Positions 54,001 to 57,000 of a stretch of 64,000 nt of DNA are shown here, piece after piece (within the stretch, counting starts at the first letter, position 1; each line of letters begins with the position of its first letter). A program made the position numbers. The stretch is from an uncultured Methanosarcinales archaeon. GTDB taxonomy: Archaea > Nanobdellota > Nanobdellia > Woesearchaeales > GW2011-AR9. The DNA is taken from positions 570,681 to 634,680 of the forward strand of contig CAZCGN010000001.1 of NCBI GenBank assembly GCA_964498285.1, read 5' to 3'.

Positions 54001-57000
54001 GTAGCATCAAAGCTTATGATTCCAGCAAGCATTGAGAAGATGTTTAAAATTGATGATCATATCGCAGCAACAGCATCAGGAATTATTTCAGATGCTAGGG
54101 TTCTTGTAGATCGTGCGCAGTTAAAAGCTCAACAACATGCAGTAACATACGGCTCACCAATTGATTTATTGACAGTTGTCAAAGACATTTGTGATCTAAA
54201 ACAAATCTGTACACAATCAGCGGGTCTCAGACCATTTGGGGTAAGTGTTCTTGTTGCAGGCGTTGAAGAAGATGGAACACCAAAACTCTTCTTAACAGAA
54301 CCGTACGGGCTATATTTCGGATATAAAGCAGCAGTAATTGGCGAAGGTGAAACTGAAGTTGATCAGATCTTACAGAAACGCTACAAACCAACGATGACAA
54401 TTCAAGAAGGTCTTGCACTTGCAGCAACAGCTCTTAAAGCATATTTAGGCACTGATTTTAGCGTGGACAGACTAGATGGGATGTACATCACTATTGCTGA
54501 CAAAAGATACAAAGCGTTCACTCGTGAAGAACTTAAGAATGCTGCAAAGTAAGAACTTTCCTTTTCTTTTTATACCTTTTATTTTCAACTTTAAAGCCAT
54601 ATGAAACATGACAAAATAATTCTTGCACGGCTTAAAAAAAGCGGGAGCACTTTTGAAATAAGTGTCGATTCAGATAAAGCACTTGAATTCAAAGAGGGGA
54701 GATTAAGTGACATTTCTCTGGTCCTTCATTCTGAAAATATTTTCTCTGATGCAAAAAAAGGACAAGTAGCTTCTTCAGATGAGCTCCAAAAGGTGTTCGA
54801 AACAACAGATATATCTCAGATTGCTGCAATAATTATCCGTAAAGGTGATATTCAGCTCACATCTGAGCATAGGCAAGAGGAAAGAAATCGTAAATTGCGC
54901 CAGCTTATTGATACAATTCACCGGATTGCTATTAATCCCCTTACGAATACACCACATCCCCCTGCAAGAATTGAGACAGCTCTTAAGCTGGCAAAAATCC
55001 ACCTATCAGAGCATAAACCTATTGAAGACCAGCTCTCTGATATCGTATCAAAACTCAGGCCACACCTCCCTTTGAGAATTGAGATGAAAACACTTCAAAT
55101 TACAGCTAAACCTCAGTATATTGGCAAAATTGGCGATTTTATAAGAAAAAACAGTAAGTTTTTAAAAGAAGAGTGGGATTTTCAAGGTAATTGGAACATA
55201 AAACTAGAAGTCCCGGCAGGATTTGAGCCTGATTTGATTGATAGGCTCAATACGTTAACGCGCGGCGACATAATTATACAAAATGACAAAAAGTGAAGTA
55301 GTAGCTCAACACAAAAGTGTTGCGATTCCTGGCCAAGTATTGGCACAAGGAATGGATTATCTTCCCGGTGAAAATACATACCGCGAAGGTGATGCGATTT
55401 TTTCTGAAAGACTAGGATTAGTAGGGATTTCAGGAAGAGTAATCAAAGTTATGCCTTTAAAAGGACCATACAAACCAAAAGTAGGTGATAAGATCATTGC
55501 AAAAGTCTTTGACATTACCATGTCTGGATGGCGAGTTGAGACAAACACTGCCTATGCAGCAATGCTTAACGTAAAAGATGCATCAACCCGGTTTATTAGG
55601 AAAGGTGAAGATCTCAGTGGCATCATTGCAATTGACGAGTTTGTTGTAGTCAAAATTTACAATGTAACCTCTCAAAATTTGATTGATGTTACAATGAAAG
55701 AGCCTGGCTTACGAAAAGTTGAGGGTGGGCGAATCATTTCTATTAATTCCATGAAAGTTCCACGAGTTATTGGAAAGCAAGGAAGTATGATCAGTTTGAT
55801 TAAGAGATACACAAATGCAGATATTACAGTGGGACAAAATGGTTTGATTTGGATCAAAGCACAAAATCCTCTTGATGAGTTTGTAGCAGAAGAAGCAATA
55901 AAACAAGTTGAGAGTAAATCACATCTGAGCGGTCTTACTGAGAGAATTGAAAGTTTCTTACAAGAGAAAACAGGAAAGAAGGTGCAAGCAGCTCCAATGC
56001 GAAAGCCAGCAGCTTCTCCTAAAACAGCTCCTTTGCAAGGAGGTGAAGAATAATGGCCTATACAAAACGATTAGACGGTAGGAAAGTTGATGAACTTCGT
56101 CCAATGGAAGCTAAGGTTGGTGTTATTCCTAACGCTGATGGATCAGCGTATTTCAAAGTAGGGAACACTATTGCATACGCAGCAGTGTATGGCCCTCGGC
56201 TTCTTACAAGAAGAAGTAGCCAAGATCCAACAACAGGTATCTTACGATGTCATTATAACATGATGCCATTTTCAGGCTCAGGCTCACGTATTAGGCCTGG
56301 AACCAAAAGACGAGCACAAGAAATTGCAATGGTAATGGAAAAGGCGTTAAATCCTGTAGTGGACTTAACAGATTTCCCCAACGCAGTTGTTGATGTATTT
56401 GTTGAGTTTCCTCAGACTGATGCTGGAACCAGATGTGCTGCAATCTCTGCGGTATCAATAGCACTTGCTGACGCGGGTATTACCATGAAAGATATGGTGG
56501 CATCTGTGGCGATGGGTGAAGTTGATGGAACAGTTCTTGCAGATCTTACATACAATGAAGAAGCATTTGATGGTGTTGTCTCAGATGTCCCGATTGCAAT
56601 GGTTCATAACACAAAAGAGATTACTCTTTTGCAAATGGATGGCGAAATCTCCAAAGAAAGTGTTGCAAAAGCACTAGAAATGGGGAAAGCTGCAGTTGAC
56701 AAAGTCTACGAAGTACAGGCAGCAGCACTCAAAGAGAAATACACCGCGGAGGCTCAAGAATGATTTCAAACAAAACAGCAATAGCAGCTCTTGCAGCAAA
56801 GGGTATGCGTCTTGATAACCGAAAACTTAACGATTACCGAGGACCAGTAACTGTTGATGTAAACATTACAAAAATGGCGGAAGGTTCTGCGCGCGTACAA
56901 ATTGGTGAGACAGTAGTTCTTGCAGGGGTAAAATTATCACTTGAAAAACCATACTCAGACACACCAACTGAAGGTGGATTGATGGTTAATGCTGAATTAA

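Follow-up and report, generated by a model that had tools for sequence, protein, structure and literature searches.

Late maturation of the large ribosomal subunit

The late maturation of the eukaryotic 60S subunit involves Nmd3, Tif6/eIF6, Sdo1/SBDS and Efl1. In the accounts consulted, residues 16-42 of yeast Nmd3 are described as a treble-clef finger bound to eIF6, residues 43-154 as an eL31-like domain touching Lsg1, and residues 155-250 as the P-site domain (PMC6579518; PMC5536393). IF6 is described as common to archaea and eukaryotes (PMC8024482), and a survey including two DPANN representatives reported Tif6 and Sdo1 as consistently present and Nmd3 as ubiquitous, while calling the role of archaeal Nmd3 open (PMC8481954). 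In Haloferax, aIF6 was reported to be essential, with an effect of its depletion on only one of six conditions (PMC3828320). SDO1 has been listed as consistent in all DPANN phyla in a list from which EIF6 is missing, a gap that Fig. S35 of the same work may show (PMC8407392).

The literature already contains an IF6-independent role of aSBDS and the finding that aSBDS is unneeded for aIF6 release: in Sulfolobus, aEF-2 was reported to release aIF6 without aSBDS, and aSBDS inhibited the release (PMC8024482). By that work aSBDS is already excluded as the factor releasing aIF6, but the experiments were carried out in vitro with an aIF6-bearing organism, and genomic loss and a link to Nmd3 are absent from the account consulted. 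In P. abyssi, aSBDS has been described on idle 70S ribosomes, at the peptidyl-transferase and GTPase centres (PMC13324472).

An SBDS gene in the exosome operon of a genome without aIF6

The window, that is the whole stretch of 64,000 nucleotides analysed here, carries an SBDS gene within an operon of the order Pop5-PsmA-SBDS-Rrp4-Rrp41-Rrp42-RpoK, with the following features:

53413..53760, + strand, Pop5/Rpp14, RNase P subunit, first gene of the exosome operon (PF01900)
53839..54552, + strand, PsmA, proteasome alpha subunit (PF00227, PF10584)
54601..55296, + strand, SBDS/Sdo1, 231 aa (PF01172, PF09377, PF20268; TIGR00291; solved archaeal SBDS chains)
55283..56053, + strand, Rrp4, exosome, its start overlapping the SBDS end (PF21266, KH domains, coordinates)
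56053..56763, + strand, Rrp41, exosome, RNase PH family (PF01138, PF03725)
56760..57551, + strand, Rrp42, exosome, RNase PH family (PF01138, PF03725)
57551..57772, + strand, RpoK/Rpb6, RNA polymerase subunit (PF01192)

Which of the two RNase PH family genes is Rrp41 and which Rrp42 is presumed from operon order. The SBDS reading frame is free of stop codons, its SBDS_N, domain II and SBDS_C all exceed the Pfam cut-offs, and the full-length model TIGR00291 matches residues 3-224 with 205.8 bits against a cut-off of 126.55; the closest solved structures are archaeal SBDS chains (E ~1e-51). Like archaeal SBDS/Sdo1 in general (TIGR00291; AF0491; P. abyssi aSBDS, PDB 9SRB), it has three domains and a position in the exosome operon, and it keeps all 29 residue columns conserved in at least 90% of 40 sequences. 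It differs in occurring in a cell without aIF6, and in that the gene has been cleanly deleted in part of its own family, where it is absent in 14 of 42 genomes. The protein itself is an ordinary three-domain archaeal SBDS, and the interest lies in what the genome lacks.

The best relatives of the window PsmA are titled Woesearchaeota, Nanoarchaeia or Nanobdellota, and many records named 'uncultured Methanosarcinales archaeon' group among Woesearchaeota by PsmA, which suggests mislabelled deposits with a presumably automatic label. Directly upstream of the operon, 46036-53358 (+) encodes a secreted-looking protein of 2440 aa that is rich in repeats and has a membrane segment at its C-terminus.

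Absence of aIF6 from the genome and from most sampled genomes of the phylum

The genome (G000) is 96.3% complete in 22 contigs. The PF01912 search returned no match at E<=10, and a profile of 50 Nanobdellota aIF6 sequences, run with --max over 21,776 six-frame ORFs, scored 9 bits at best. With 11 divergent aIF6 sequences held out of the profile, these were recovered at 74-251 bits, against 11 for the best ORF of this genome. The survey's finding, which had coupled an intact three-domain SBDS with the lack of aIF6, therefore stands on the three Pfam models and TIGR00291 for the first part, and on PF01912 and the phylum-specific profile for the second. A 275-aa ORF before pfdA on contig C2 was considered as a disguised aIF6 and rejected, as it has no family or atlas match and no relative in 30 loci, and is missing from the pfdA loci of eight family members; its single-sequence model is mostly helical, with a pLDDT of only 36 that makes it unusable. 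Neither an eL20/LX gene nor a PDCD5-like gene was detected in the genome when proteins of one or two relatives were used as tblastn queries.

Among 401 Nanobdellota genomes, each at least 90% complete, aIF6 exceeds the PF01912 cut-off in 140 and is missing from 261, and SBDS_N occurs in 355; both proteins are found in 138 genomes, aIF6 only in 2, SBDS only in 217 and neither in 44. The family of the present genome has no aIF6 (0/42), nor has another family (0/29). In the 111 families with an SBDS-positive genome, aIF6 is present in all members of 45, in none of 60 and in part of 6. Earlier counts of aIF6 in 36 of 91 phylum genomes and in 0 of 8 family members, and of SBDS_N in 43 of 54 aIF6-less genomes, are thereby reproduced on the larger sample (140/401, 0/42 and 217/261), bearing out the claim that aIF6 is missing from more than half of the sampled phylum and that SBDS stays whole without it. 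A phylum-specific aIF6 alignment gave no real match in 76 of the 261 aIF6-less genomes, with one partial match at 13 bits, and matched four of four positive controls, among them one that the alignment itself contained.

As assembly controls, eL31 was found in 30/30 aIF6-less genomes and uL14 in 80/80 mixed genomes. In the search for aIF6, all four named controls from other archaeal phyla have it. The aIF6-less genomes are all MAGs or single, possibly unclosed contigs, the single-contig ones being G004, G009, G112 and G184. Six genomes in the tallies are flagged as unpublished (G333, G360, G322, G244, G396 and G243), and no conclusion rests on them. Plain genome shrinkage was rejected as the reason for the loss, since the single-contig genomes G059, G248, G316 and G370, of 0.5-0.8 Mb, keep aIF6 and the 1.3-1.5 Mb genomes G009, G161 and the present one are without it.

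Empty slots in the gene neighbourhoods

A second region of the window had been read as the place from which aIF6 disappeared:

27885..28331, - strand, eS19 (PF01090)
27710..27928, - strand, eL39, true start probably at an ATG 15 codons in (NF002316 at E 0.0045, below cut-off; same position in relatives)
27230..27706, - strand, eL31 (PF01198)
26842..27180, - strand, 112-aa ORF of no known family, inserted variably between eL31 and Cbf5 (no Pfam/NCBIfam match)
25899..26864, - strand, Cbf5/TruB pseudouridine synthase (PF01509, PF16198, PF01472)

The gene order eS19-eL39-eL31-112-aa ORF-Cbf5, from 28331 down to 25899, is as claimed. In this order the place after eL31 is no vacant aIF6 slot, as none of 43 of its aIF6 loci, read by eye, has eL31 adjoining; the usual context in these loci is ScpA-aIF6-(PRPP synthase)-pfdA-ftsY, and eL20 is absent between aIF6 and pfdA in most of them. 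The eL31-aIF6 neighbourhood was met in other orders only (G092 and G312, and G089 with one ORF between). The 112-aa ORF was likewise dismissed as a remnant or replacement of aIF6, having no Pfam or NCBIfam family and no relative in the loci compared; in relatives, eL31 often stands directly before Cbf5.

Slots emptied of aIF6 were recognized elsewhere. ScpA stands directly before pfdA in the aIF6-less genomes G175, G314, G230, G345 and G049, the order eL14-pfdA is found in aIF6-less G112, G153 and G204 versus eL14-aIF6-pfdA in G239, and aIF6-less G275 has eL31-eL20-pfdA-ftsY. The flanking genes abut in these slots and leave no room for a 660-bp aIF6 gene. In five of eight genomes of the family a gene of 67-69 aa precedes pfdA, and its copy in G111 shares 38% identity with a 72-aa gene of the sister family, where that gene separates aIF6 from pfdA. 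Families f1 and f17 have a conserved protein of 56-72 aa, assigned to no Pfam family, immediately upstream of pfdA (L223:1259-1459, L049:4194-4409), and small ORFs similar to it occur in G002 and G004.

Number of losses

On a species tree built from 18 ribosomal proteins, with 81 genomes picked by hand, aIF6-positive and aIF6-less genomes interleave. Dollo parsimony counts 24 losses of aIF6, or 14-18 with weak branches collapsed; as three of these probably reflect gaps in assembly, the estimate is roughly 11-15 losses or more. An approximately unbiased (AU) test on 52 genomes and the first 1700 columns, leaving out the three probable gaps and 26 others, rejected a single clade of 26 aIF6-less genomes (p-AU 6.8e-53). 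The family of the present genome is sister to the aIF6-positive family f17 with a support of 100. The gene tree of aIF6 is poorly resolved at depth, so some aIF6 may have been regained by transfer. It is likely that aIF6 was lost many times within the sampled Nanobdellota.

Trimming of Nmd3

The Nmd3 gene of the genome lies outside the window (G000:C2:190318-190767 = L089:1819-2268) and encodes only 150 aa, consisting of an eL22-like domain and a short beta part, with no CxxC in frame. The eL22-like P-site domain corresponds to PF04981 positions 143-240 and to residues 155-264 of yeast Nmd3, in agreement with the fold search; the ~45 residues of strands that follow it in the model would suffice for an SH3-like part and are too short for the OB part. 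A fold search with the model of this stub (pLDDT 93) returned 14 matches at E<=0.001, every one a chain from a pre-60S or 60S-Nmd3 structure. A separate copy of the Nmd3 finger was sought in six frames of the genome, with 14 bits at best and no copy found, and the profile of the eL31-like domain with the second zinc site (A2) gave no match in it. The 150-aa protein is classed as a truncated derivative of Nmd3 rather than a full member. Of the factors in eukaryotic late 60S maturation, aIF6, SBDS and an Nmd3 with the finger are retained in the aIF6-positive relatives, while the present genome is without aIF6, the Nmd3 finger, the eL31-like domain and the C-terminal OB part.

The same division runs through the phylum. 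When PF04981 was applied to 80 genomes, the whole model was matched mainly in aIF6-positive ones and only positions ~141-243 in most aIF6-less ones. The N-terminal arm, which maps to yeast Nmd3 18-149 as the stub maps to 155-264, was matched by its own profile in 127 of 140 aIF6-positive versus 12 of 261 aIF6-less genomes. In 16 independent pairs on the tree, about 9 changed the same way, none the opposite way and 7 showed no difference (median p 0.004). The first zinc finger is found in 0/17 aIF6-less Nmd3 frames read, with G004 and G232 keeping the second site; among aIF6-positive genomes it is present in 126/140 and absent in 10 (7 read, 3 by match start), 4 being uninformative. In the sister family f17 (L126, L365, L367), where aIF6 is kept, Nmd3 has lost the eL31-like domain, with the finger attached straight to the eL22-like domain, in three of three genomes. 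Loss of aIF6 is likely to be accompanied, as a rule, by loss of the Nmd3 part that is predicted, by analogy with yeast, to grip it. This matching loss of the Nmd3 arm, a signal the survey's finding had missed, is the strongest addition of the present analysis.

Seven aIF6-less genomes have a match covering the finger (G007, G199, G296, G165, G392, G366 and G314). The first five of these also lack pfdA, which was found in the other 25 of 30 genomes tested, and are thus probably assembly gaps; the arm match of G366, in a 715-aa frame, looks spurious; and G314, which lost aIF6 and kept a full Nmd3, is a real exception. As ten aIF6-positive genomes are fingerless and G314 keeps its full Nmd3, the link between Nmd3 and aIF6 is not strict, and the finger count in aIF6-less genomes could be slightly low because finger-only forms escape the arm profile. 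Nmd3 has only ~100 aa in several genomes of other orders (G112, G184, G153, G204 and G027). In family f55 the N-terminal arm is a separate frame of 113-131 aa in 5/5 genomes (G378:C1:227783-228088, L128), and the Nmd3 gene of G378 is split, as the rest lies ~500 kb from the arm.

Retention and loss of SBDS

The three domains of SBDS are whole in 20/20 aIF6-less and in 20 aIF6-positive genomes. Scaled to ribosomal proteins, in genomes with both kinds of data, three SBDS distances amount to 1.05, 1.09 and 1.39 without aIF6 (n=15) versus 1.02, 1.02 and 1.54 with it (n=19), so that a relaxed or shortened SBDS in the lack of aIF6 was dismissed. Since most aIF6-less genomes keep an intact SBDS, the protein likely has a job beyond removing IF6.

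Of the 46 absences of SBDS, 44 fall in aIF6-less genomes. In four of five genomes Rrp4 stands directly after PsmA with no room for SBDS, the fifth locus ending at a contig edge, and the excision is clean in G176, G161, G026 and G049, with the exosome genes staying in place. A pair test on the tree for dependence of SBDS loss on aIF6 loss was not significant, with only 4 SBDS-less genomes in the tree. The proposal that these genomes form a natural knockout separating SBDS from IF6 holds insofar as SBDS is whole where aIF6 is missing, but the knockout is not clean, given that nearly all absences of SBDS lie in the same genomes.

Other factors on the ribosome

The genome keeps ABCE1, which is described as blocking re-association from the 30S side (PMC7196836), and it encodes a HibA-like factor; to say that such cells build 50S subunits with 'no anti-association factor', as had been proposed, is overstated as these two remain. 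The 35-position Pfam model detected ABCE1 in 3/5 genomes; the single-contig aIF6-less genomes G004 and G184 have no match to the ABCE1 iron-sulfur Pfam model, which may reflect the short model. The HibA-like protein (G000:C2:60228-61373 = L370:229-1374) joins a CBS module, which is present, to an HPF-like part that was detected by the three-sequence profile only (52 bits), PF02482 having no match in this genome and 20.6 bits, below cut-off, in G161. By that three-sequence profile, an HPF-like domain occurs in 73/80 aIF6-less genomes, in 44/45 with SBDS and 29/35 without; with no exclusion between them, mutual replacement of SBDS and HPF-like factors was dismissed, and the proposed guarding of idle ribosomes by SBDS gains no support from these counts. 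The fused CBS-HPF form is found in most genomes of the family, and other families mostly have a stand-alone domain of ~110 aa.

RsfS binds uL14 as an anti-association factor in bacteria, which are also without IF6. The present genome is without RsfS and none of five aIF6-less genomes has it above cut-off, by which these archaea differ from bacteria and RsfS was rejected as a substitute. Co-loss of eL24 or Nog1 with aIF6 was likewise rejected, each being present in 5/5 genomes and both in this one. At the end of uL14 that binds aIF6, no clear relaxation was seen (entropy 1.12 vs 1.14, the three probable-gap genomes left out), so a relaxed uL14 interface was dismissed, uL14 being no more variable without aIF6; known aIF6-uL14 contacts are described as contacts to backbone atoms (PMC8377010).

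Proposed ribosome maturation without the IF6 lock

The observations above are absences and co-occurrences, and the functional steps proposed here are drawn from yeast and other archaea. The ancestor would have possessed a yeast-like trio in which the N-terminal treble-clef finger of Nmd3 was clipped onto aIF6. With the repeated loss of aIF6 the arm of Nmd3 would have become partnerless and so decayed, the finger going first in some lineages. The eL22-like stub would still plug the P site of the young 50S, ABCE1 and initiation factors, acting from the 30S side, would keep the subunits from joining, and the HibA-like factor would store idle 70S ribosomes. SBDS would still act after Nmd3 leaves and on idle ribosomes, yet be dispensable, and this would account for its losses being concentrated in genomes that have already shed aIF6. 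The suggested role in hibernation is by analogy with another archaeon (PMC13324472). For the present organism, in which SBDS is intact, aIF6 was not detected and Nmd3 is reduced to the P-site domain, we consider it probable that the 50S is matured without the IF6 lock and that SBDS serves as a predicted placeholder over the peptidyl-transferase and GTPase centres. With somewhat less assurance, the balance also favours the wider statement that most archaea of Woesearchaeales and Pacearchaeales type mature the large subunit in a minimal way, without the IF6 lock, after more than ten losses each accompanied by loss of the Nmd3 finger; genomes would thereby offer the first evidence that the obligate archaeal partner of aIF6 is Nmd3 rather than SBDS and that the ancestral job of SBDS is IF6-independent placeholding.

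Several other readings were weighed. An SBDS kept for a role in the exosome or rRNA processing, or fading slowly as a relic of the aIF6 pathway that rides in the exosome operon, would explain its operon position, a link discussed in the part of PMC8024482 consulted, as well as the concentration of its absences in aIF6-less genomes and the clean excisions; it is nevertheless unlikely, as all three domains are kept with none relaxed, the exosome genes remain after excision, and aSBDS has been observed on the P. abyssi ribosome (PMC13324472). An unrelated protein that took over 50S anti-association, as RsfS does in bacteria, is made plausible by the reported essentiality of aIF6 in Haloferax (PMC3828320) and agrees with the conserved uL14 surface. 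Such a substitute would have had to be recruited many times, once the many independent losses are considered, and the vacated slots share no common gene and RsfS was above cut-off in 0/5 genomes, which makes this reading distinctly doubtful.

The remaining two readings question the losses themselves. One or two early losses of aIF6, followed by its return through transfer, together with the Nmd3 arm, in scattered families, would suit the poorly resolved aIF6 tree and the different neighbours of the aIF6 gene between orders; this is very unlikely, because the distances between aIF6 sequences correlate with those between species (rho 0.62 over 23 genomes, with non-independent pairs), the common ScpA/pfdA-ftsY context and the empty slots fit deletion, and Nmd3 is unlinked to aIF6, so that two transfers would be needed each time. 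An aIF6 present but too diverged for detection, or unassembled, has precedents in the real aIF6 of G248, G316 and G370, which score only 42-54 bits on PF01912, and in the five pfdA-less genomes with a full Nmd3 arm. This possibility is slighter still and hardly tenable, given that the held-out diverged aIF6 scored at least 74 bits versus 11 for the best ORF here, that whole families are without aIF6, that the flanking genes abut, that an independent loss of the Nmd3 arm is unexpected from missed detection, and that the 275-aa ORF lacks a family, an atlas match or, in 30 loci, a relative.

If maturation without the lock is accepted, the repeated natural loss of aIF6 would mean that some cells can do without the lock. 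Archaeal Nmd3 would gain an assigned partner and surface from the parallel disappearance of its finger, which is directly testable in genetic archaea, and the pattern supports a job older than IF6 eviction for SBDS, the Shwachman-Diamond protein. The Nmd3 arm is also a practical witness that separates real aIF6 loss from an assembly gap.

Loss of aIF6 with trimming of Nmd3 is probably unreported as a stated result. Term look-up gave no mention of IF6 in the main texts of PMC7414124, PMC8997704, PMC8339473 and bioRxiv 10.64898/2026.05.13.725050, nor in three supplementary files of PMC7414124, although its larger tables and the supplements of the preprint may contain the pattern; no report of aIF6 loss in DPANN or of a truncated archaeal Nmd3 was found in a search that largely excluded subscription journals.

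Other genes of the window

Elsewhere in the window, a three-gene run at 20765-23266 (-) presumably encodes, by its resemblance by eye, an ATP-grasp (glutathione-synthetase-like) enzyme, a GNAT acetyltransferase and a cysteine-synthase-like enzyme. An ORF at 62529-63575 (-) shows, also by eye, the motifs of a Ser/Thr protein kinase.
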